From Escherichia phage saus132: a DNA stretch of 64,000 bases. The notes below the pieces were generated by a model, which was not told the origin of the DNA, searched no databases, and saw only the letters and a list, made by a program, of their open reading frames with translations. The translations under genes and the position numbers were made by a program. Below are positions 5,162 through 64,000 of this stretch, in pieces (position 1 is the stretch's first letter; each line of letters starts with the position of its first letter). Location: the sequence record NC_047884.1. One strand, written 5' to 3'.

Positions 5162-5557
5162 ATGGAACAAGTATTTTGGCGTCAGATAGATCCTAGTTTG
5201 GTAGAGCGTGCTGAGGGGCTCCTTGCACGTTGGTTGGGGGTTGACAAGGTTAGTGTAACATTTCCGTTTACTTCTGTAACAGACCCTAGTGTAGGTGTCT
5301 TTGTGGACGAAGATGAAGATGATGGTTGGGAAGCTGACTGGAATGAATTGTCCAGTATGGGCTTGATTGTTGCCCTCAACTTCTCTATATTCCATCCACG
5401 TGGCTTAGCCATTACACGTGACCCCGAAACTGGTGAATCCCCTTATCTTTTGCAAGTAGAAGATGATATTTGGGAGTACACCGAAGATATTCTCGAAGAA
5501 GCTAAAGGTCAATTAAATCGCATTGGGATCTATGTTCCAGGCCTAAATGATGATTGA
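5162..5557 (+). CDS. Hypothetical protein, paralog B of a tandem pair
   Basis: MGLIVALNFSIFHP...TGESPY...VPGL aligns with the preceding ORF. Confidence 0.6.
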   Translation: MEQVFWRQIDPSLVERAEGLLARWLGVDKVSVTFPFTSVTDPSVGVFVDEDEDDGWEADWNELSSMGLIVALNFSIFHPRGLAITRDPETGESPYLLQVEDDIWEYTEDILEEAKGQLNRIGIYVPGLNDD

Positions 5558-5648
5558 TTTTCATTAGTCCAATCCTGATTACCGAGTCATTTTGGCTCGG
5601 TTTTCTCTGTGCTCAAAGACACTGATAGCACCTTCGGAAAAATTTTAC

Positions 5649-5678
5649 TTGCAGGATGCTCAAAATCTTGATATAATA
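5649..5678 (+). promoter_or_regulatory. Early promoter with extended -10
   Basis: TTGCAG, 18 bp spacer, TGaTATAAT, followed by conserved ATTTATATTGAATTGAGAGA downstream block. Confidence 0.5.
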
Positions 5679-6173
5679 TTTATATTGAATTGAGAGACAT
5701 TAGTAAAAATTGATTTTGCTAATTTTTCTTGTTTACAATCCGCAATACGGAACAGTTAGGCTGCCCCATTAAGGGTTGTTTTAACTATTACTAGTGTTTA
5801 TACTGCATTAGTTAATTATCAATTAAGTGATCTGCGTACCCTGAATTCGGAAAGGTAAATCCAAACCGTGCATATTTAGCTCGTTATATAGGCAGAGCTT
5901 TATATGGGGGTGCGAACGAAAAGAGCAGCGAATGGTGACACGTCCAGTAGCCACCTACCAATAGGATAGTGAGGGCAATCAGAATCGGCTTAGCGGCCAA
6001 TGACCTAGGTTCTGATCTGGATAAGAGTTAAGAGAGCGCAGCACTGAGGTATGATAACTTATTCATACTGCTTGATGATGATTAATGTTTGTGTAAATGG
6101 TAGTAATAGTTGTTCTATTCTTTTGAATAGTCCTAAAGAAAGATATCCGAATAACCAACATAGGAGTATTGTT

Positions 6174-8963
6174 GTGTTCTCAATCCTACAAGGTCACGCA
6201 GGATTTTCCAGAGATAAAGCCACTGGCATCTGGAAAGAGATCAAAGTGGAAGACTACACCTTTGCAAAGCGATTCTCTAAAGAGCATCCAGAAGGTAAAC
6301 CAGCTTCCATGCCCTTCAAATTTGATGTACTTGAAGAACTTGACCCGCAAAACCTTGCTGAAATGTTACCTATCATGCGTCGTCTTACCAAAGACCCGCA
6401 TATTGTAGCTATTCGTGGTAAATGTTTAGCTCCAAAAGATAATGTGCGTCGTACCAGAGGAAACTTTAATGTATCCAATCCTAGTCATATTATTGCTATG
6501 GACGTGGATGGTATTGTAGATACTGGTGGCTATGACAAGTTTAATCTTGTCGGCATGGCACGTCATATTATTAAGATGTTGAATAGTATTAGTGAGGATA
6601 TGTTTCCTCTTGATGCAGGGTTTATTGCTCATGCATCGTCTTCGGCTGGCTTAAAACCAGGTATCCGAATGCACTTAATGCTAGAATCTAATGTCAAGGT
6701 AACGCAGGGGCAATTAAAATTCCTATTTACATCCATCAATGACAGTAGTAAGCAAAAGTATGGCTTTGATATTGCTGACTTAGCTTATTATTCTTCTGTT
6801 CAGCTTCACTATTTCGCAGATCCCTTATTTGATGATGGTATAGTCGATCCGTTTAAAGCGGAGAATAAACCACGTCTTGTGTATGTTAAGGGTTCGAAAG
6901 TGAATCTACCCAATAACCTAGTTGACTTTGAAACAACTAGAGGTGAGTTTAAAGAAGAATTCTACTCCTTACTTGACCAAATTAAAGGCAAGAAGGCTGC
7001 ATCTGATAAAGTGGAAGAAACCATCAGCGAACTAGAAGAAGCTGAGGATGGGGTGTACCTGCGTATTATCCCAAAACTTTATCACAGAGCGTTAGAAGAT
7101 GGTGTTGACTTTACGTGGTTAGAACGTGAGATTAAACCAGCTTTATCTGAGTATATTGCGACTAAAGATAATAGTCGTAATATTCAAGATTACTTTAATA
7201 ACGGTCGTAAGCAGGCTCTCAAAGCCTTTGTAAATAACTCCAAACGTGAGATTCCACCAAACTTAAAAGGTGTACCATTAAAACGTCTAGACACAGATTC
7301 TCCACCAGAAGTTCCATACCTGAAAATTAACATTGTACCACCAAAAGGACATTTAACATTTGTTAAGGCAAGTCTTGGTACGGGTAAAACTACAGCAGTA
7401 ACTAAGTGGCTAGATGCAGGTGTTCTTCCAGGGAACTTTATTGCAATCACAAATACTAGGGCACTTGTATCTTCTAACGCGAAGAAATTCGGTGCTGGCC
7501 AGTATGATAAGTCAGTTGATATGCTGAACTTCAAACGTGGTGCTATTGATCGTATGTCTTCAACTATTCACTCTATCCATAAGTTCAAGAGCTTTGTGGG
7601 TCAGATTGATACGATCTTTATTGATGAATGTGATGCAGTAATGAACGATCTGTTATTCGCTCCGGTTGTTAAAAACCGTCGTGAATGTATTCAGGTTCTT
7701 CGTGATATTCTTATTACTGCAAAAACGGTGATCTTATCTGATGGGGATATCAGTGCAGAAACGATTGAAGCCTATGGTTCTTTGATTGATTTTGATAAAC
7801 CGGTTGCGTTCTATAATCATCACCGTAAAATGCTGGCAAAAGCTCATGCTTATGAATTCCCTGACGAATCCAGTATTTGGGTTGCACTTCAAACATCTCT
7901 AGAGATGGGTGAGAAGTCAATCCTAGTATCTGACTGTGGACCAGATGAACTGAATGAAAAGGGAATGGCATTACGTCGTAATACGGGTGCGTTAGTTAAA
8001 GAAATTCACTCAAACTCTACGTCTGATGTAGATATCCGTCGTATTCTGGATTATACAACTAATGAGCTAATTGATCAACAGATTGATTGTTTGTTATGTA
8101 GTCCATCTGTAACGAGTGGTGTTGACTTTAACTATTTTGATAACGTATTCGTAATCACTAGAACCTCAAACCAAGCGCCAAACATGCGTTTTCAAGCAAT
8201 CAGGCGCGACCGTGGTGCTCAGAACATTTATTATTTTATTGATAAATCTACGAGTGGATTTTCTGCGGGTTCCGAGCAATATAATATTGACGAAGGTTGG
8301 ATTGAGTTAGCCCAACAACTGTACGCACGTCGCCGTGAGCTGGAATCTAGAAACTATACCAGTACTTTGCGTTATTATCTTCTCGATCAAGGTGCAACTA
8401 TCGATATTTTCAGCGAAAGCTGGGGAACTATCGAAGGTGCAGGCAAAGAGTATATAGAAGAGCGAATCAAAGCTATTTTGCACTCAACTCCTGAATATTG
8501 CGCACCACGTCATGCAGACGCCTATGAAGCCAAGTTACTTCTGGTTCGCTATTATCATCTGGATTCTATTAAAGATGTAATAGTGGAACACGTTGAACAG
8601 TATATTAAGGATAAACCAAACGATAGAGCTGCATTCTTCCATAAGATGCACGACATGTTCTGGGAAGATATTAAAAAGTGTTCAAACGTAACAATCAAAC
8701 CGTTTATCGAAGCTCTTAAGAATAAGAAGAAGGATTTCTTCCTTAAGACAGGTCAGAGCGCTAACCCAAAATATGCTCGTATGTATCTTGGCATGATGGG
8801 TATCGGTAAAGATCTGGATACGGAAAAGATTGTGGACTGGTACAGAACTTACTGTAAGATCGAATGTATGCCGATTCCAGTTAAGTTTATGACAGATGAA
8901 GAACGTCAGATGCATGAGGAAGCTCTTGCTGAATTGGGGGCTAGAAATGACAGCGAAGAATAA
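6174..8963 (+). CDS. Putative replication initiator / origin-binding-type helicase-like ATPase
   Basis: Walker A SLGTGKTT, Walker B FIDECD; start placed at GTG 6174 (RBS AGGAG 7 nt upstream) instead of track start 6051. Confidence 0.6.
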   Translation: MFSILQGHAGFSRDKATGIWKEIKVEDYTFAKRFSKEHPEGKPASMPFKFDVLEELDPQNLAEMLPIMRRLTKDPHIVAIRGKCLAPKDNVRRTRGNFNVSNPSHIIAMDVDGIVDTGGYDKFNLVGMARHIIKMLNSISEDMFPLDAGFIAHASSSAGLKPGIRMHLMLESNVKVTQGQLKFLFTSINDSSKQKYGFDIADLAYYSSVQLHYFADPLFDDGIVDPFKAENKPRLVYVKGSKVNLPNNLVDFETTRGEFKEEFYSLLDQIKGKKAASDKVEETISELEEAEDGVYLRIIPKLYHRALEDGVDFTWLEREIKPALSEYIATKDNSRNIQDYFNNGRKQALKAFVNNSKREIPPNLKGVPLKRLDTDSPPEVPYLKINIVPPKGHLTFVKASLGTGKTTAVTKWLDAGVLPGNFIAITNTRALVSSNAKKFGAGQYDKSVDMLNFKRGAIDRMSSTIHSIHKFKSFVGQIDTIFIDECDAVMNDLLFAPVVKNRRECIQVLRDILITAKTVILSDGDISAETIEAYGSLIDFDKPVAFYNHHRKMLAKAHAYEFPDESSIWVALQTSLEMGEKSILVSDCGPDELNEKGMALRRNTGALVKEIHSNSTSDVDIRRILDYTTNELIDQQIDCLLCSPSVTSGVDFNYFDNVFVITRTSNQAPNMRFQAIRRDRGAQNIYYFIDKSTSGFSAGSEQYNIDEGWIELAQQLYARRRELESRNYTSTLRYYLLDQGATIDIFSESWGTIEGAGKEYIEERIKAILHSTPEYCAPRHADAYEAKLLLVRYYHLDSIKDVIVEHVEQYIKDKPNDRAAFFHKMHDMFWEDIKKCSNVTIKPFIEALKNKKKDFFLKTGQSANPKYARMYLGMMGIGKDLDTEKIVDWYRTYCKIECMPIPVKFMTDEERQMHEEALAELGARNDSEE

Positions 8964-9180
8964 AAAGTGGGAAACAAGGAAGTTTCCCGTAAAAGAACGT
9001 AAAACTTCTGTTTACGATACTGCGGAGAAACTATGTAGGGTTGTACCACCTCGTCTCGCGGGCATCCCTAACGTCTCCATATGGTTACTTAAACAACGGA
9101 AGACTCGTGTGTCTCTTCGCATTGGCTTTGAGTTAGATAAAGTCTATGCTGAACTTGCTTCTTTGCTCAAAGAATCGTAA
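8947..9180 (+). CDS. Hypothetical small protein
   Basis: ORF overlapping end of upstream gene; start set at internal ATG. Confidence 0.35.
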   Translation: MTAKNKKWETRKFPVKERKTSVYDTAEKLCRVVPPRLAGIPNVSIWLLKQRKTRVSLRIGFELDKVYAELASLLKES

Positions 9181-9248: not shown

Positions 9249-9953
9249 ATGGCTGGTTCTCGTAGAAAGAAACTTATCCATGAAATCCCTGATGAAACCT
9301 TTAAAAAGGTTATTGAACATCTAGAGAATGGTGGTACTAAGAAAGCAGCATGTGAAATGCTCGGCGTTTCTTCTAACCCAACTATGGAACGAATGATCGA
9401 GGAATGGAGAGATCGTCAGGTTCAAGTTGCGGAAATGAAAAAGAAGAAGCGCGGAACACTGATTGAAGGTGTTGAGCTTGCAAACGTAATTGAACAGTAT
9501 CTTTCTGGTGATTCTTTTGAAGAAATCGCTGATCGTAATTATCGTTCTGTAGCGATGATTAAATCTGTTCTAGAACGTTACGGTGCTCTGCTTCGTTTAA
9601 ATGATACTGTTGATCCATTGAATCCTCCATTGATTCCTGATGATGCAATGGCAGAGGAATTTGAAGTTGGTGAACTTGTTTGGGTTCCTGGCTATCAGTG
9701 TATTGGTGAAATCAAGAAAGCAATGACTAACCCAGTTGGTTGCTATCGTGTTTGGTTGTTATCAGAAGGTAAACAACAGAACGTTCACTATATGCACTAC
9801 GAATTAGCTTCTGTTAAACATCTGGAAAAGCTGGGAGTTGATGTTAAAGCTCTTGGCTTTAAATGGAGCCGTGAAGAAGTTATCACGTTGGTTAATGAAG
9901 CTGTTAAAGCTGCACTGAAACTCGATAAAGAGAAAGGAAAACGCCGTGAGTAA
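9249..9953 (+). CDS. Putative DNA-binding protein (N-terminal HTH)
   Basis: GGTKKAACEMLGVSSNPTMERMIEEW helix-turn-helix-like segment; directly downstream of PN25-like promoter. Confidence 0.55.
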   Translation: MAGSRRKKLIHEIPDETFKKVIEHLENGGTKKAACEMLGVSSNPTMERMIEEWRDRQVQVAEMKKKKRGTLIEGVELANVIEQYLSGDSFEEIADRNYRSVAMIKSVLERYGALLRLNDTVDPLNPPLIPDDAMAEEFEVGELVWVPGYQCIGEIKKAMTNPVGCYRVWLLSEGKQQNVHYMHYELASVKHLEKLGVDVKALGFKWSREEVITLVNEAVKAALKLDKEKGKRRE

Positions 9954-56869: not shown

Positions 56870-58534
56870 TTATGCAAAGAATTTTCCATTCTTAAAGTCA
56901 ATCAAAGTACGCTGCCCGTTTGCGTATGTAATTAAATGGGTTTGCGTCCAGCTACTAGCGCCAACGTTGTAACCCATATCGAGACTACCAGCAACGCCAG
57001 CGGTATAAACGCCGCCATAAATACTAGCCGTGTGAGTGTGGCCAGTATTGAGGCGTCCCAACTTTTTGAACTGTTTTGGATTGCCCCGACTGCCATTAAT
57101 GCCGTTGTGACCATGAACACCGCATTCAATTCCTGCAATCTTGAAAGATTGGTCAGTGGTTAGGAAAATGGCGTTAAATTCGCAACCTGCAACGTTTCTA
57201 AGCGCGTAATCCAATACGTTAAAGGTATCATCTTGTTTTGCAATAGCTGCATAAATCGCGGCGTTTAGGCTGTGATACAGTTCGGCGTTTGCGGGGTCGT
57301 CTTTAATGTTAGCGTTGCGATCATCAAGCCAACGGGATAACGCCAAATCATGATTGGATTCCACGATGATTGTTTGAGAAAAATCGCGCTCCATTGACTC
57401 CAACACGCGACCGGTATCAATGAGATCGTCAATAACTTTGTCACGTCCGGCGGCGTACTGTTTAGCTAGGAATACACCAGAGGCACGATTATGATGATTG
57501 CGGGATGTAAAATCGTGTACGTCATGGATAAACTGATATTTCGGTTTAAGAATATCAAGCAAGCTATTTTCGCCCACCCATGATGCAACGGCGCAATCAT
57601 CATCTAATTTTTCGGCGTGAATATCGCCATATTGCAAGCCTAAAACATGATCAGATGTTTTGAAACATCCGGTGGGCACAGCGCAAACGTTCAAATCGTA
57701 GAACATCCCGCTTTCGTCCATAGTTTCAAGCTGGCGAACAAAAAATTCTCCGTCGTCGTCAAATTCTACCAGTAAAGCACCGAAATTATGCAGCGCCTCG
57801 GCCTTTTGTCCTGCCTTTTGCTGAATATAGTTTTTAAGTGTAGCCGTTCCGGTGGAGTACATACGGCGCACTACTTCACCTTTTAACGCTGGCACACTTT
57901 CAGCGGTAATTTTTGCGTGACCAATTGCCAGACCTTCGATGTTTAAAGCCGTTGCAGTTTCTGCGAATCCAGAAAGCGGATAATCTGCCGTTGGTAATAC
58001 ATTAATTTCAGCCATGAAAGCAAAACGGCGATTATTCAAAAACACGTTTTTCTCACAAATATATTTATCAAATGCGGGATCATATTTGATTTTTTCGCCG
58101 CCTTCCCCGTTCTGAAATCCGTTTTTGTTGTAAATGAATTTGCTAACAAGTAATTCAGCGCCGTAATAACTAGCGTACTGCTCAAGCGCTTTCAAAAAGT
58201 TTTTATGCGGGAAAGTATTGTTTTGAATCGACGTTAGAATAAAACGGCGACCGGATTTAACTTCCCACTGTTCAACGGTGCTAGAAACAATCCCCGCCGC
58301 TTCTGGGCGATCATCGTTTTTAATGGCTTTTACTGCCTTCGCTGCCTTCGGTTTCGCTGGCTTATTTGCTTCCAACCAGTCACAAATTGCCGTTGAATGT
58401 TTCGGCGTATCATAAACAGCTTTTGAAATATCGTCGCAAACTTCCAATTTAGTAGCGCGTAAACGCTTACCGTAGAAGTTAAAATCTGCGGCCATTTTCA
58501 AAATTTGAGCTTGTTTTTCTGCGGAAATATTCAT
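56870..58534 (-). CDS. A1: A1-like pre-early protein (calcineurin-type metallophosphatase motifs)
   Basis: 554 aa; motifs GDIHAEK, GHNGINGSRGNP, GHTHTASIY; size matches remembered T5 A1. Confidence 0.75.
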   Translation of the reverse strand: MNISAEKQAQILKMAADFNFYGKRLRATKLEVCDDISKAVYDTPKHSTAICDWLEANKPAKPKAAKAVKAIKNDDRPEAAGIVSSTVEQWEVKSGRRFILTSIQNNTFPHKNFLKALEQYASYYGAELLVSKFIYNKNGFQNGEGGEKIKYDPAFDKYICEKNVFLNNRRFAFMAEINVLPTADYPLSGFAETATALNIEGLAIGHAKITAESVPALKGEVVRRMYSTGTATLKNYIQQKAGQKAEALHNFGALLVEFDDDGEFFVRQLETMDESGMFYDLNVCAVPTGCFKTSDHVLGLQYGDIHAEKLDDDCAVASWVGENSLLDILKPKYQFIHDVHDFTSRNHHNRASGVFLAKQYAAGRDKVIDDLIDTGRVLESMERDFSQTIIVESNHDLALSRWLDDRNANIKDDPANAELYHSLNAAIYAAIAKQDDTFNVLDYALRNVAGCEFNAIFLTTDQSFKIAGIECGVHGHNGINGSRGNPKQFKKLGRLNTGHTHTASIYGGVYTAGVAGSLDMGYNVGASSWTQTHLITYANGQRTLIDFKNGKFFA

Positions 58535-59883: not shown

Positions 59884-60047
59884 TTTTAATACTCCGGTTT
59901 ATTGGGGATTATTCCACAATAGCGCCTCGATACTTTGAAACGCTATTAGATTATAATCCGCTAGGAGTTAGCCTAAACATTACCGTTATCCAAATTGTTA
60001 AAGAGCAGTTACTACGGGGAACATCTTAAAACCTATCGGCTAGCGTG

Positions 60048-60257
60048 TCAAGCGTTTTTTAAACTTTTTTCGATTTGATGTGAGTTATATAAATCAATCA
60101 TTATATTACGCCACACCATTTCCAGACCTTGCTGCTTACCTTTCTTGTATTGCTTGAATCTGTATTTTACAGATCTTTGCGCTACTGTCAACAAATTTTT
60201 TGTTCTGCTATCAAGTGACTTGATAGGCTTGCCAGTGATCAAAAGCGTTTGTTTCAT
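60048..60257 (-). CDS. Hypothetical basic protein
   Basis: Lys/Arg-rich ORF; an upstream 52-codon ORF (60260-60418) overlaps its start by ATGA. Confidence 0.45.
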   Translation of the reverse strand: MKQTLLITGKPIKSLDSRTKNLLTVAQRSVKYRFKQYKKGKQQGLEMVWRNIMIDLYNSHQIEKSLKNA

Positions 60258-60749
60258 TTGAGATCCTCCAAAGCATATAAACCATCCCCATCATTGCAGA
60301 TTATTACCGCTTCCGAATGATTAGCATAGTATTCATTTGCAGTCTTTACCCATTGTTCGATTTTTTCGATAGTGTCGTGGGTAGCTGGATGATCGTTAAA
60401 TATTATTGTCATATCGTCGATTCCTTATAATGTATAAGTTTACCGCCGATAGGCTTTAAGATGTTCCCTAGTTTTTAAAGAGCATGGCGGTAAACTTCCC
60501 CGCCGTGTAGTTCGTCATTGCCGCCCTACGTGATAAATATTAGGGGAATACCGAAAAGGGCGCAACCATATTTTTGTAAAGAAACGTAAAGACAAACGCC
60601 ACCGCACCACGTCCAGCGGCGCACTAAATTTAATGAAACGGGCGCGCGAATAACACCAAAACAACCATTTTAGCAAGTAATTTTTTCATTTATATCTGCT
60701 CTAGGGTACTTGACAAAATCTAAAATCCTCGTGGTGAGGTTTTCTCGGT

Positions 60750-60830
60750 GTGCCCCTTATGGTTGCCTATCTTTTCCTTTGAGGCGCTTAGAATGCGTTA
60801 CAGAGCGTTTTAGACCCTGTTAATAACTTA
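60750..60830 (+). repeat. Direct repeat copy 1 (core TTAGAATGCGTTACAGAGCGTTTTAGA)
   Basis: 27-bp core at 60786-60812 identical to 63363-63389, degenerate similarity on both flanks. Confidence 0.85.
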
Positions 60831-60859
60831 TACAAAAAGCAAAAATGAAATTTAATGAG

Positions 60860-61201
60860 TTATCCACTTGATTTTTCAAAAAAGTATTTTCTGCTATTAT
60901 TTTTCATTGACAAATAAGTTTAGACGTGCATTGATTGGTTAGCAGACTAACAATCGCTAGGATGATAATCACGCTGGTGGATTGTAACAGCTGAAACAGT
61001 TAGCAGACTATTAATACTCTAAAAACCTATTAGCCAACTAACTATTTCATATTATATAATATACTTATAAATTAAAGAGAAATAATAACTATAAGAAACT
61101 ATCGGCTAAGTGAGAACCACTATCATTTAGGTTATTCACAAAGTTATCCACAGCACAAAATAACTTGACGCAATAGGCGACGTTTTGGCGACTTATCCAC
61201 A
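60860..61201. promoter_or_regulatory. Cluster of DnaA-box-like 9-mers
   Basis: TTATCCACT at 60860; TTATCCACA at 61144 and 61193; weaker GGTGGATTG at 60976. Confidence 0.6.
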
Positions 61202-61247
61202 GACTTATATACAGGTTATCCTACTGTATAAATATACAGGGTAGAAT
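61192..61247. repeat. Left arm of long inverted repeat (contains DnaA box and palindrome CTGTATAAATATACAG)
   Basis: About 90 percent identical to reverse complement of 63418-63472. Confidence 0.85.
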
Positions 61248-61519
61248 GGTAGCAGTAACAACCGCAATCAAATTTAAGCGGCCTAGAACACGCTATACGG
61301 CGTTTTCTCACTGCTACCCTTATTATAATAAAGCCTTGTGTACGCTTACAGAGAACTAGAAATAGAAAACGCGCGGCAATGGAAGCGGCAATGTTGGAAA
61401 TGGTACAAAGTTTCAATATTGCTGAAATGATCGATGAAATGGTAAAAGGTATTGACATTTCAACCTTTACCCAAAATGCTGAAAGCGAGTAATAATTAGT
61501 CTAATGTAAAGTTTTGTAA

Positions 61520-61546
61520 AGGTCGCCCTAATCGGCGGCCTTTTTT
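61520..61546 (+). terminator. Terminator-like hairpin
   Basis: GGTCGCC-ctaatc-GGCGGCC followed by TTTTTT. Confidence 0.45.
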
Positions 61547-61548
61547 GT

Positions 61549-61554
61549 TATAAT
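61549..61554 (+). promoter_or_regulatory. Extended -10 promoter element
   Basis: TGtTATAAT followed by RBS TAGGAGG and ATG 61612. Confidence 0.4.
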
Positions 61555-61611
61555 GCCTTTACACCGAAACGGTGGATTGAAAATTTTCCCCTGATTTCTA
61601 GGAGGCGTTAA

Positions 61612-61839
61612 ATGGTACATTCATCATCTTCTGCAATTTTTAACGGTATGGAATGGGTATCCGTTCCCGCTATTGTCAGCGTTATGGTTTCTGAGTTCGG
61701 CATAGGTAAAACTTATGTTACCATTCAGGGGCTTTACGACAATGACAAGATTGACCAGCAAACCGCCGGATTTTTGCTGGATGAATTGAAAGCTAACCAT
61801 TGCACTAAAAAGCAAGCGGCAAAAATTGTTTTAATGTAA
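61612..61839 (+). CDS. Hypothetical small protein
   Basis: RBS context ATTTCTAGGAGG. Confidence 0.55.
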   Translation: MVHSSSSAIFNGMEWVSVPAIVSVMVSEFGIGKTYVTIQGLYDNDKIDQQTAGFLLDELKANHCTKKQAAKIVLM

Positions 61840-61885
61840 TTATTAAAGGGGATATATTATCCCCTAATTTCTAGGAGCTAATAAA

Positions 61886-62035
61886 ATGGTTATTTTTCGA
61901 TCTATTCTGGCTAGTATCTTGGGCGCTATTTTATCGTTGTTTGCAATAGCTTTCGGTGTTCATGCCGTTATTATCGGAGCAGGTATCGCGGGGTTTTCTT
62001 ACTTGTTAGGCTGTATGACTGGTAAAGGGGAATAA
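61886..62035 (+). CDS. Small membrane peptide (49 aa, below ORF-track size cutoff)
   Basis: RBS context ATTTCTAGGAG; hydrophobic ILASILGAILSLFAIAFGVHAVIIGAGIAGF. Confidence 0.4.
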   Translation: MVIFRSILASILGAILSLFAIAFGVHAVIIGAGIAGFSYLLGCMTGKGE

Positions 62036-62037
62036 AA

Positions 62038-62250
62038 ATGTTAAAGAATGTTTCCCTTGCCCGTTCCAAAGGTTTTAAGCTGGTGGATGTTAACACGTTC
62101 GAGCGTCCAGATTGTAAAATTGAATATGTAGCACGCAACAAAAACGCTTTCCGTGTCACTGAAAAGAAATTTGACAAGCGCGGCAATTTGGTAGCCGAAA
62201 CGGTTAAACACTTTGCCACTTTTTACGCTGCATTTCGTGGGGTATTATGA
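62038..62250 (+). CDS. Hypothetical small protein
   Basis: ORF in tightly packed operon. Confidence 0.5.
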   Translation: MLKNVSLARSKGFKLVDVNTFERPDCKIEYVARNKNAFRVTEKKFDKRGNLVAETVKHFATFYAAFRGVL

Positions 62251-62387
62251 AAACTTTATTTTCTATTTTGCTCGGTGCTGCTGGTGGCTTTATTGCTACC
62301 TGCTTTAAAAGTGATCCTGCACTGTTAGGCGTTTATTCGATTTGTTTTGGCTATTTGCTAGGGAGGCTGGCAGATGGTTATTTATGA
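62247..62387 (+). CDS. Small membrane peptide (46 aa, below ORF-track size cutoff)
   Basis: MKTLFSILLGAAGGFIATCF...; start overlaps upstream stop. Confidence 0.35.
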   Translation: MKTLFSILLGAAGGFIATCFKSDPALLGVYSICFGYLLGRLADGYL

Positions 62388-62718
62388 GGGCAATCGCTTT
62401 GTTACTAATTGCCGTCCGGCATTATTAGCAAACTATTTAAACCAGCTTTCACCAGTTTATAAAGGCGTAATTAATATCTATGAGGGCAAAGCACATTATA
62501 AGATTAATGCCATTGTTGCCCGTGAACTAGCGTTTCAATTTTTAACTTTTGGATCTTGTGACGTTCAGGTTATGGGGGAAGCGTTAATAGCAGAAAATGA
62601 AAATGAATTTATCGACATTTTCCGCAAAGTATGTACAGAGCGCCTGATTATGAAAGGCGCGTATATTCAATCAACCGCTGAAAGTATAGAAACAGCGTTT
62701 CGAAAGGTGGCGCAATGA
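62374..62718 (+). CDS. Hypothetical protein
   Basis: ORF in operon. Confidence 0.55.
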   Translation: MVIYEGNRFVTNCRPALLANYLNQLSPVYKGVINIYEGKAHYKINAIVARELAFQFLTFGSCDVQVMGEALIAENENEFIDIFRKVCTERLIMKGAYIQSTAESIETAFRKVAQ

Positions 62719-62912
62719 CTAAAGATGAAGCACTAGAAAAAATGAAACAAGGTTTCAAAGTTCGTCAAGAATACTTCACTAGTGAGGAATTTTTGTACAT
62801 GAAAAATGGCGTGATCATGTCAGAAGATGGATATACTTTTAATGACTGGTTTTTCAAGATTACCCCTGCTACACGTTGGAAGCTAGACGGTTGGAGCGTC
62901 TACCGTGAATAG
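62715..62912 (+). CDS. Hypothetical small protein
   Basis: ORF overlapping upstream stop (ATGA). Confidence 0.5.
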   Translation: MTKDEALEKMKQGFKVRQEYFTSEEFLYMKNGVIMSEDGYTFNDWFFKITPATRWKLDGWSVYRE

Positions 62913-63035
62913 CTGGTGGCGAAAAACACAAAGCCATAAATCTAATAATACCGCTGGGAAACATTCCCAGCGTTTACGATTTAGTAGCGGGCTTGTAATG
63001 GTAATAATAATCATTCTCATTCTAGGAGCGATGGC

Positions 63036-63275
63036 ATGGCTGTAAGAATTTTACGATATGTGGAACGTAAAGAAACCGATATTATGCAACATCATTTAAC
63101 TGATGCGCAATACGCGCAATTTTTAGAAATGCAGAAAAGCGGAGCTGATACGGCAACGCTAGGAGCGTGGATCAACTCAGTTTCAACGTGTACGCATTTT
63201 GATTCATACGGGTATACGCCAGCCGAAACCGTCCAGATCTTTGATGACTACGAGAAAGAATACATAGCAGACTAA
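63036..63275 (+). CDS. Hypothetical small protein
   Basis: RBS TCTAGGAGCGATGGC-ATG; followed by terminator. Confidence 0.55.
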   Translation: MAVRILRYVERKETDIMQHHLTDAQYAQFLEMQKSGADTATLGAWINSVSTCTHFDSYGYTPAETVQIFDDYEKEYIAD

Positions 63276-63281
63276 TAATAA

Positions 63282-63309
63282 CGGGGCGCAACTATCGGCC
63301 CCGCTTTTT
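63282..63309 (+). terminator. Rho-independent terminator
   Basis: CGGGGC-gcaactatcg-GCCCCG followed by CTTTTT. Confidence 0.6.
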
Positions 63310-63324
63310 CTGGCCTTCCTCAAA

Positions 63325-63405
63325 TTTCCCCTTATTAAAATACCTCCTCCAAAAATAAACGCGTTAGAATGCGTTACAGAGCGTTTTAGAGCTATATTAG
63401 AGTTA
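63325..63405 (+). repeat. Direct repeat copy 2 (core TTAGAATGCGTTACAGAGCGTTTTAGA)
   Basis: 27-bp core at 63363-63389 identical to 60786-60812. Confidence 0.85.
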
Positions 63406-63417
63406 TTCACTACGCAG

Positions 63418-63472
63418 GAATACTGTATAAATATACAGTAGAATAACCTGTTGATAAGTCTGTGGATAACGC
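63418..63472. repeat. Right arm of long inverted repeat (contains DnaA box TGTGGATAA and palindrome)
   Basis: Reverse complement matches 61192-61247 at about 90 percent; further GGTGGATAA at 63522. Confidence 0.85.
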
Positions 63473-63562
63473 CTCAAAATCGCTAGGATTTTGTCAAGTC
63501 AAATCGTGCTGTTAATAAACCGGTGGATAACTTAAATAACAGTGTTTCTCACTTCGCTTTGT

Positions 63563-63706
63563 AAATGCGAGTCACTCTCATTATCATTCGCGTTTCCCTT
63601 CCTAAATGCAAATCATTCTCATTCGTATTCCGGTAGTCAAATGATAACTATTCTCATTCGCATTCAACTTCTCAAATGCGAATCAATCTCATTATCATTT
63701 GCATTT
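63563..63706 (+). repeat. Iteron array 1: four tandem ~36-bp units each containing an inverted pair AAATGCGAAT...ATTCGCATTT
   Basis: Units start at 63563, 63604, 63639, 63674. Confidence 0.8.
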
Positions 63707-63743
63707 CGGCAGGCAGGGCATTTTCTATTTGCCCTGCGCTTTT

Positions 63744-63966
63744 GTGCAAATCCGACATTTGCCCCCACGGATTACGTGCCAGCGTGCATGTGCGAATCCG
63801 ACAATTTTTGGTAGTGTGCAAATCCGATGGCAAATATTTTTTATATGTGCGAATCCGACAATGAATTTTCCTAAAAACTCCAGCAATCCGCAACTGCGAT
63901 GCAATCCAGCTGGGTTTACTAGAGTATGTGCAAATTCGACAAGTGTTAAGGTGTGCGAATCCGACA
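63744..63966 (+). repeat. Iteron array 2: six same-orientation copies of GTGCRAATYCGAYR (array may continue beyond window)
   Basis: Copies at 63744, 63790, 63816, 63847, 63929, 63953; shares core TGCGAATC with array 1; perfect hairpin GCAGGGC/GCCCTGC at 63713-63737 between arrays. Confidence 0.8.
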
Positions 63967-64000
63967 AGATTTTTGTGACTTCGATGAGAGGGTGTGTGAT

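Follow-up and report, generated by a model that had tools for sequence, protein, structure and literature searches.

In phage T5, the left copy of the terminal repeat is the first-step-transfer (FST) DNA, which is the first part of the genome to enter the cell. The T5 annotation of Wang 2005 (AY587007) records inverted repeats C, D, D' and C', a direct repeat B and a palindrome D, with no protein assigned to them. According to the account given in Davison 2020 (bioRxiv 10.1101/866236), DnaA boxes in the T5 stop region are credited to work from 1987; Davison proposed that membrane-bound DnaA retains the DNA at the stop site until it is freed by A1 and A2, and argued against an origin role for the boxes. 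The boxes were restated in a 2023 paper on phage BF23, which called experimental studies of their role lacking, and in a 2026 PNAS paper, which called the mechanism poorly understood. Our literature search, these two papers and Davison 2020 included, found no published DnaA-binding, ChIP or dnaA-host test of the boxes.

E. coli oriC, datA, DARS and the dnaA promoter resemble the locus described here in that the R-type box TTATCCACA has weaker variants of like orientation next to it, spaced at nearly one helical repeat. The phage locus differs from these clusters in its 3-bp spacing (the low-affinity DnaA arrays of oriC have 2-bp spacing) and in having neither an unwinding element nor a GATC cluster. 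An E. coli-like box arrangement of this kind would allow cooperative DnaA loading. For the IHF site of the datA/DARS type, we find one core match, at 63444, which overlaps a box and rests on a variant present in few relatives. Foreign elements such as P1 oriR, pSC101, F and the lambda pR region also carry host DnaA boxes that recruit DnaA. There, DnaA works in replication initiation or at a defined promoter, whereas here the boxes lie in a region that is not an origin, in a virulent phage with replication genes of its own.

The window, by which we mean the whole stretch of 64,000 nucleotides analyzed, covers the final 64 kb of a T5-like phage genome. It is 100% identical to MF431736.1 (chee130_1, genus Epseptimavirus) and starts at position 57987 of that record, so that its last nucleotide falls on the record length (57987 + 63999 = 121986). 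Window position 64000 corresponds to MF431736.1 position 8717 in the left terminal repeat (LTR) and 121986 in the right (RTR), and coincides with the repeat end; five T5-like phages have a terminal repeat that is 100% identical over positions 60400-64000. The box cluster sits in the right terminal repeat of the window, and the left copy is identical. Its non-coding blocks lie to the right of dmp-A1-A2, as in the FST region of the T5 family, and occupy the same terminal-repeat position as T5 FST Repeat Regions 2/3, right of A1 and A2. The layout of this part of the repeat is as follows.

60413..61378, no strand assigned: non-coding block 1, equivalent to T5 Repeat Regions 1/2, with 0 CDS in the identical MF431736.1 and mechanical ORFs only
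61379..63275, plus strand: variable cassette of small pre-early ORFs between both arms of the inverted repeat, five of them annotated CDS in MF431736.1
63276..64000, no strand assigned: non-coding block 2, equivalent to T5 Repeat Region 3, reaching the terminal-repeat end
60788..60814, plus strand: copy 1 of a 27-nt direct repeat, TTAGAATGCGTTACAGAGCGTTTTAGA, found by repeat search and 100% identical to 63364-63390
63364..63390, plus strand: copy 2 of the 27-nt direct repeat, 30 nt upstream of the palindrome at 63421
63546..63972, plus strand: direct repeats 3' of the right arm, of the T5 DRC/DRD type, with three ~51-nt units and then five TGTGCGAATCCGACA copies, to the repeat end

Block 1 separates the pre-early genes, which run leftward, from the accessory cassette, which runs rightward. 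The sequence-only reading had described about 2.7 kb of largely non-coding DNA around the boxes; this is right for 60413-61378 and 63276-64000 and wrong for 61379-63275, which is packed with plus-strand ORFs, including the five CDS. Block 2 matches the misc_feature 'injection stop signal' of AY692264 and the corresponding S114 label, and in related records the stretch matching 63.3-64.0 kb likewise carries the label 'injection stop signal'. The 27-nt repeat has related copies in Vibrio phage 70E37-3, one of them beside that phage's palindrome. Rfam and tRNA scans of the region gave nothing above threshold, and a Pfam search with the A1 and A2 proteins matched no family.

Within this layout, the boxes are organized by a large inverted repeat, whose arms flank the cassette.

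61105..61239, plus strand: left arm of the 135-nt inverted repeat (T5 IRC-spacer-IRD), 75% complementary to 63423-63557
63423..63557, minus strand: right arm of the inverted repeat (T5 IRD'-spacer-IRC'), with 86-97% identity across related loci
60860..60868, plus strand: lone DnaA-like box TTATCCACT, with T at position 9, mirroring the 63403 box
61132..61152, plus strand: box pair 1, TTATTCACA-aag-TTATCCACA, both consensus, with starts at 61132 and 61144
61193..61213, plus strand: box pair 2, TTATCCACA-gac-TTATATACA, consensus and variant, with starts at 61193 and 61205
63403..63411, plus strand: extra DnaA-like box TTATTCACT, with T at position 9; TTATTCACT or TTATCCACT in 36/38 loci
63449..63469, minus strand: box pair 3, TTATCCACA-gac-TTATCAACA, with starts at 63449 and 63461
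63510..63530, minus strand: box pair 4, TTATCCACC-ggt-TTATTAACA, both variants in this phage, with starts at 63510 and 63522

Each arm thus holds two head-to-tail pairs of 9-mers, with 3 bp within a pair and 61 bp from pair to pair, and the spacing of box starts is 12/49/12 in both arms, the same as in the T5 right arm. The four same-strand, 3-bp-spaced pairs are seen by eye; a relaxed pair pattern catches three of them, compared to 0.02 per shuffled window. The DnaA consensus TT(A/T)TNCACA is matched by four boxes (61132, 61144, 61193 and 63461), and the other six are one- or two-mismatch variants. Boxes 63403 and 63449 converge on a palindrome in the right arm and lie 9 and 8 nt from it, respectively. 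Every related locus covering the region has both arms, and the distance from arm to arm ranges from 1573 to 4053 nt (36 loci).

The DnaA-box cluster is therefore the already published repeat structure (IRC-spacer-IRD / IRD'-spacer-IRC') of the T5 injection-stop region. T5 has a homologous inverted repeat of ~131-135 bp (BLAST identity 80% for the left arm and 90% for the right arm) and, like this phage, shows four 3-bp-spaced box pairs, palindrome D, then DRC/DRD-type repeats and then the repeat end. By transfer of the T5 annotation, the region would act in cis to halt transfer after ~8% of the genome. There are also differences. The inter-arm cassette of this Epseptimavirus is different and shorter (2183 nt vs ~3.2 kb in T5); all eight pair boxes are present, compared to seven in T5 (eight DnaA/DnaA* in the published description); and pair 4 is without a consensus box, unlike T5. 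The boxes at 60860 and 63403 and the LexA-likeness of palindrome D are absent from the T5 texts examined. What is new here is the variation of the boxes across arms, their persistence across genera, the loss of the left arm in a viable T5 mutant and the LexA-like palindrome.

Host DnaA recruitment had been suggested on the basis of five to seven sites, and the five main ones are where the sequence-only reading placed them: TTATCCACT at 60860, TTATCCACA at 61144 and 61193, TGTGGATAA at 63461 (exact, minus strand) and GGTGGATAA, which equals TTATCCACC, at 63522. The inventory was incomplete, as it missed TTATTCACA at 61132 (a consensus box), TTATATACA at 61205, TTATCAACA at 63449, TTATTAACA at 63510 and TTATTCACT at 63403. 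Its two 'weaker copies', at 60976 and 61571, do not belong in the cluster: they read GGTGGATTG (equal to CAATCCACC) and have three mismatches, positions 1-2 among them, where the conserved boxes show no variation; moreover, the 61571 site reads GGACGGTTG in 19/34 relatives, which marks it as a chance match. The enrichment itself is borne out. In the window, 8 sites within one mismatch fall in 2.85 kb vs 17 in the other 60.7 kb (Poisson 2e-6), and across the genome (113,269 bp, non-redundant) the region contains all three exact copies of TTATCCACA (3/3), four of the nine TT(A/T)TNCACA matches (P 1e-5) and 8/41 one-mismatch sites (P 3e-6), although the sites entering these P-values come from a two-box module of ~23 bp that is present four times and so are not independent.

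We compared the arms across 37 related loci gathered through the neighboring A1 gene rather than through the boxes; the locus of Vibrio phage VPG01, which ends at the record end, was left out, and the arm alignment comprises 55 unique arms. The lone box at 60860 is invariant in all related loci with a homologous stretch (16/16). At the positions homologous to pair 1, TTATCCACA or TTATTCACA occurs in 36/38 loci; the first box of pair 2 is TTTTACACA, TTATCCACA or TTTTGCACA in relatives and the second is TTATCCACA in 32/38, as is the outer box of pair 4 in 33/38. Over the 55 unique arms, the entropy of box positions 1 to 9 is 0, 0, 0.24, 0.11, 1.11, 0.73, 0.28, 0.09 and 0.19 bits. Positions 1 and 2 are invariant, positions 4, 8 and 9 nearly so (position 4 is C in two copies and A in two), and position 7 is largely fixed; position 3 is mostly A and otherwise T, position 5 takes all four bases, and position 6 toggles between C and A. 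The predicted sites thus vary in a way that mirrors the degeneracy of TT(A/T)TNCACA, position 6 excepted, and about half of the boxes have a change at position 6 (C to A) or position 7 that the strict DnaA consensus disallows. This pattern supports selection on the 9-mers that would mimic DnaA specificity.

Consensus boxes are concentrated in the arms, with 182 in 10.8 kb of arms vs 30 in 603 kb outside (36 loci). Pairs in the left arm often have two consensus boxes, whereas pairs in the right arm have two in 0/28 and one in 22-23/28. In close relatives the entire arm is conserved and the boxes are not singled out; in right arms, the non-box columns are even slightly less variable than the box columns. 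More distant phages are different. Vibrio phages Chester and 70E37-3, Proteus phage Stubb and Klebsiella phage Roth49 again show TTATCCACA boxes, a GAC-spaced pair and the palindrome; A1 identity there is 33-74%, and both the flanks and the sequence between the elements have diverged. Boxes and palindrome kept amid diverged flanks are the signature that short protein-binding sites would leave, and the persistence of the module across Vibrio, Proteus and Klebsiella phages fits a host factor of unchanged specificity. In a viral collection, a pattern scan with the palindrome gave T5-like contigs only. A scan of GTDB (one genome per bacterial or archaeal species) for a consensus box with the palindrome gave two matches; neither points to a host origin of the module, as one is a mis-binned fragment of a T5-like phage and the other is isolated and has no similarity to the window. 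The right arm showed similarity to none of the E. coli genomes searched.

A recent T5 deletion bears on the role of the left arm. Using primer sequences from the supplement of Annor et al. 2026 (bioRxiv 10.64898/2026.04.02.716235), we mapped the 'hegG to 017' deletion to ~5394-9160 of AY692264. It takes the whole T5 left arm (boxes 6121-6202, palindrome 6213) and keeps the right arm (9411-9518), and the mutant is viable with small plaques (Annor et al. 2026). Because this mutant is viable, the left cluster, the interval on which the sequence-only reading had centered (60750-61260), appears to be dispensable in T5. In addition, transfer passes the left arm despite its better boxes, so binding of DnaA is not enough by itself to stop transfer. 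The idea of host DnaA recruitment, already in print for T5 (Davison 2020), comes out of these comparisons partly supported: it is reasonable, in that box variation fits DnaA specificity and the module persists across genera, and it is limited by the seeming dispensability of the left arm.

The palindromes that adjoin the inner box pairs resemble LexA operators.

61222..61241, no strand assigned: LexA-box-like palindrome TACTGTATAAATATACAGGG, with core CTGTATAAATATACAG at 61224-61239; 17/20 to the LexA consensus
63421..63440, no strand assigned: LexA-box-like palindrome TACTGTATAAATATACAGTA (T5 'palindrome D'); 19/20 to the LexA consensus

As consensus we used TACTGTATATATATACAGTA, TACTG(TA)5CAGTA, from SOS operators of Gammaproteobacteria. 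When E. coli K-12 operators are scored with the same 20-mer, recA reaches 16, lexA 15 and 14, sulA 17 and umuD 18; the palindrome at 63421-63440 thus outscores all five SOS operators checked (14-18/20), and no other 20-mer in the 64-kb window scores above 14/20. The core CTGTATAAATATACAG lies ~10 nt past the inner box pair in each arm, and among genera the gap from box to palindrome is 8-11 nt. Across the 55 unique arms, the palindrome columns have a lower mean variation than either the box columns or the remaining arm. The palindrome is conserved in Klebsiella, Proteus and Vibrio phages; its AA/TT center flips between phages, and in one Vibrio phage the center is changed to ATATCCAT with CTGTATA...ATACAG retained, CTGT...ACAG being kept in the Vibrio phages. 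Similar to LexA SOS operators, the palindromes share CTGT-N8-ACAG with an AT-rich center; they differ in standing in a virulent phage without an assignable regulated promoter, the sigma-70-like matches nearby being weak. The alphaproteobacterial phage Citromicrobium RXM has an A1 homologue in an organization that is not T5-like, and a comparison of LexA covariation is inapplicable to it. We found no publication on the LexA match of palindrome D in a literature search whose scope did not extend to Heusterspreute 1987 and Davison 2015, which leaves priority uncertain; the text of Davison 2020 nowhere mentions LexA, SOS or promoters.

The putative LexA-type operator and the composite module across genera are the most interesting residue of the cluster. 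One may speculate that palindrome D is a genuine LexA operator of very high affinity, and that DnaA and LexA sites make up a composite landing pad on the first-entering DNA of phages from E. coli to Vibrio. We regard this proposal as doubtful. If it is true, a DnaA/LexA complex could pause or hold the genome, or couple pre-early events to the replication or SOS state of the host. A 'LexA-cleavage timer', in which degradation of host DNA leads to RecA-driven cleavage of LexA and hence to release of the stop, seems unlikely to us, given that recA1 laboratory strains are T5-sensitive and that in T5 A2 mutants host DNA is degraded and second-step transfer is absent.

Other explanations of the cluster have to be weighed against this evidence. 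One of them, that 8-10 clustered boxes of the DnaA type constitute a DnaA-dependent origin of phage replication, rests on a superficial likeness to oriC and is extremely improbable. AT-rich 13-mer unwinding elements are absent, the single 13-mer with two mismatches lying ~360 bp from the nearest pair, and both non-coding blocks have zero GATC (a marginal absence, P 0.04 and 0.07, with longer GATC-free stretches elsewhere, which counts only as 'not oriC-like'). EM studies have mapped T5 origins near the genome center, replication genes are silent at the FST stage (Davison 2020), and the left arm can be deleted. The cluster is not a replication origin and, as it is without origin features, any recruitment of DnaA would not be for replication initiation. 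Alternatively, the 9-mers, the palindrome or both could be recognized by a protein of the phage, most obviously A2 or A1 together with A2, that restarts transfer from the stop region, with the likeness to DnaA boxes coincidental or secondary. A2 binds DNA, is essential and is required for second-step transfer, and the conservation of the entire arm in close relatives, beyond the boxes, would suit such a role; the A2 proteins of this phage and of Vibrio phage Chester are still 42% identical, so its specificity could be conserved and a conserved phage protein could also explain the conservation across hosts. We consider this unlikely all the same, since substitution at position 3 by T only and a free position 5 match the particular degeneracy of the DnaA consensus, and since the adjoining palindrome is nearly perfect for a second host-protein consensus, two coincidences that are unlikely together. 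Furthermore, A2 is essential and the left arm appears dispensable.

A role in transcription has about the same standing and is also improbable: with host DnaA and LexA on the arms, pre-early transcription into or out of the cassette would be repressed, insulated or blocked, and the module would have no part in DNA transfer. Both proteins are transcriptional repressors, the left arm is intergenic between leftward and rightward pre-early genes, a sigma-70-like match spans a box (-35 TTATCA) and the palindrome (-10 TATATT), and loss of the left arm together with the cassette leads to small plaques only. However, the variable 8-11 nt between box and palindrome among genera is poor for a fixed -35/-10 geometry, promoter-like matches are not above shuffled expectation (18 vs 13.9 +/- 3.9), a promoter in the right arm would drive antisense transcription into the cassette's end, and the experimentally known T5 pre-early promoters are elsewhere. 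The predicted T5 promoter P4 gave no mapping when placed on the window, whose cassette differs. Less probable again is that the arms are mainly homology blocks, for swapping the cassette when phages co-infect, or signals for packaging or for processing of the terminal repeat, such as terminase or nick sites close to its boundary, in which DnaA-like words have no protein-binding role. The arms do flank a hypervariable cassette of 1.6-4.1 kb, the flips of the AA/TT center are expected from exchange between inverted copies, and the right arm is ~450 bp from the terminal-repeat end; yet Vibrio and Proteus phages keep the boxes and the palindrome while the remaining arm has diverged, which points to short binding sites rather than homology blocks, and the position-specific degeneracy fits DnaA.

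We therefore lean, with some reserve, towards the locus being a conserved cis-acting control region of T5-like FST DNA that carries predicted sites for host DnaA. That DnaA really binds there and matters seems to us somewhat more likely than not. That its function is the injection stop itself is a tentative suggestion, possible but on the unlikely side. The right arm opens the region annotated as the injection stop signal in T5 records. In the mechanism we envisage, the 9-mers would be genuine host DnaA sites, and in the right arm the combination of one consensus and one weaker box per pair would suit cooperative loading. Host DnaA, and probably LexA too, would load once the phage DNA enters, and a complex of host proteins and DNA would form on the first phage DNA in the cell. 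Speculatively, this complex could help to keep the genome in place, or make it pause, at the stop site before A1 and A2 come into action, as in Davison's model, and/or modulate pre-early transcription.

The question of how T5 stops injection after ~8% of its genome and later resumes it has stood since 1968, and the arrangement of DnaA boxes is the only concrete host-factor hypothesis for the stop. Our analysis makes this hypothesis easier to test, as the candidate boxes appear to evolve like DnaA sites and survive across host genera. Given that the left cluster appears dispensable, the right arm is the target for experiments, and the near-consensus LexA-type operator beside its boxes is a candidate to study alongside DnaA.

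Beside the DnaA boxes, each arm of the inverted repeat carries a palindrome that by its sequence is a near-perfect candidate LexA (SOS) operator. The elements discussed here are as follows.

Sequence elements in and around the two arms (window coordinates)
61222-61241: LexA (SOS) operator-like palindrome, left arm; consensus match 17/20
63421-63440: LexA (SOS) operator-like palindrome, right arm; consensus match 19/20
60860-60868: DnaA-like box TTATCCACT, T at position 9; conserved, additional to the eight described boxes
63403-63411, plus strand: DnaA-like box TTATTCACT, T at position 9; conserved, additional to the eight described boxes
60788-60814 and 63364-63390: 27-nt direct repeat TTAGAATGCGTTACAGAGCGTTTTAGA, one copy per non-coding block, 100% identical
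63743-63972: five copies of TGTGCGAATCCGACA, up to where the terminal repeat ends; 'direct repeat D' of T5
60017-60040 and 60445-60468: 24-nt inverted repeat, 96% complementary

The two palindromes, with their scores of 17/20 and 19/20, compare well with the E. coli recA, lexA, sulA and umuD operators, which score 14-18/20 against the same consensus. In both arms ~10 nt separate it from the inner pair of DnaA boxes, and the palindrome is kept in T5-like phages of Klebsiella, Proteus and Vibrio. The T5 annotation names the same element 'palindrome D' only, and our literature search for a link between palindrome D and LexA found no such paper. The centre of the palindrome is asymmetric (AA or TT; 61231-61232 and 63430-63431), and an alignment of 55 arms showed that its orientation is reversed between some phages, as expected if sequence is exchanged between the inverted arms or if the site is functional in either orientation.

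The right-arm palindrome is flanked by converging boxes at 63403 (plus strand) and 63449 (minus strand), which lie 9 and 8 nt away from it. At 63444-63456, the variant box TTATCAACA and the conserved GGTTA that follows it form a perfect IHF core, TATCAACAGGTTA; this core requires the box variant, which is present in few relatives only. The 27-nt direct repeat may be another conserved cis element, because Vibrio phage 70E37-3 has related copies (9243 and 10911 of locus L056), one of them next to its palindrome. The TGTGCGAATCCGACA copies may have to do with the terminal nick or with processing of the repeat. The 24-nt inverted repeat brackets small leftward ORFs (60048-60412), among which two strong sigma-70-like promoters are predicted on the minus strand at 60191 and 60051, and its probable counterpart in T5 is inverted repeat A/A', which surrounds promoters P-H22 and P-D/E20. 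Neither non-coding block (60413-61378 and 63276-64000) contains a GATC site, an absence of marginal significance only (P ~0.04 and ~0.07) given 3.7 sites per kb in the whole window.

The cassette of small pre-early genes enclosed by the arms (61379-63275) is hypervariable, and the two arms lie between 1573 and 4053 nt apart in 36 related loci (from L004-L040). Both arms are also found in RZZU01000077.1, a 3015-bp contig of a 'Clostridia bacterium' MAG; this contig, which is also 80-86% identical to window 60966-63809, is a T5-like phage fragment that was evidently mis-binned into a bacterial MAG.

By primer mapping, the 'hegG to 017' deletion of a T5 mutant corresponds to ~5394-9160 of AY692264 (L003, the T5 locus) and removes the whole left arm. 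This mutant is viable and forms small plaques (Annor et al. 2026); therefore, the left DnaA-box cluster is non-essential in T5.
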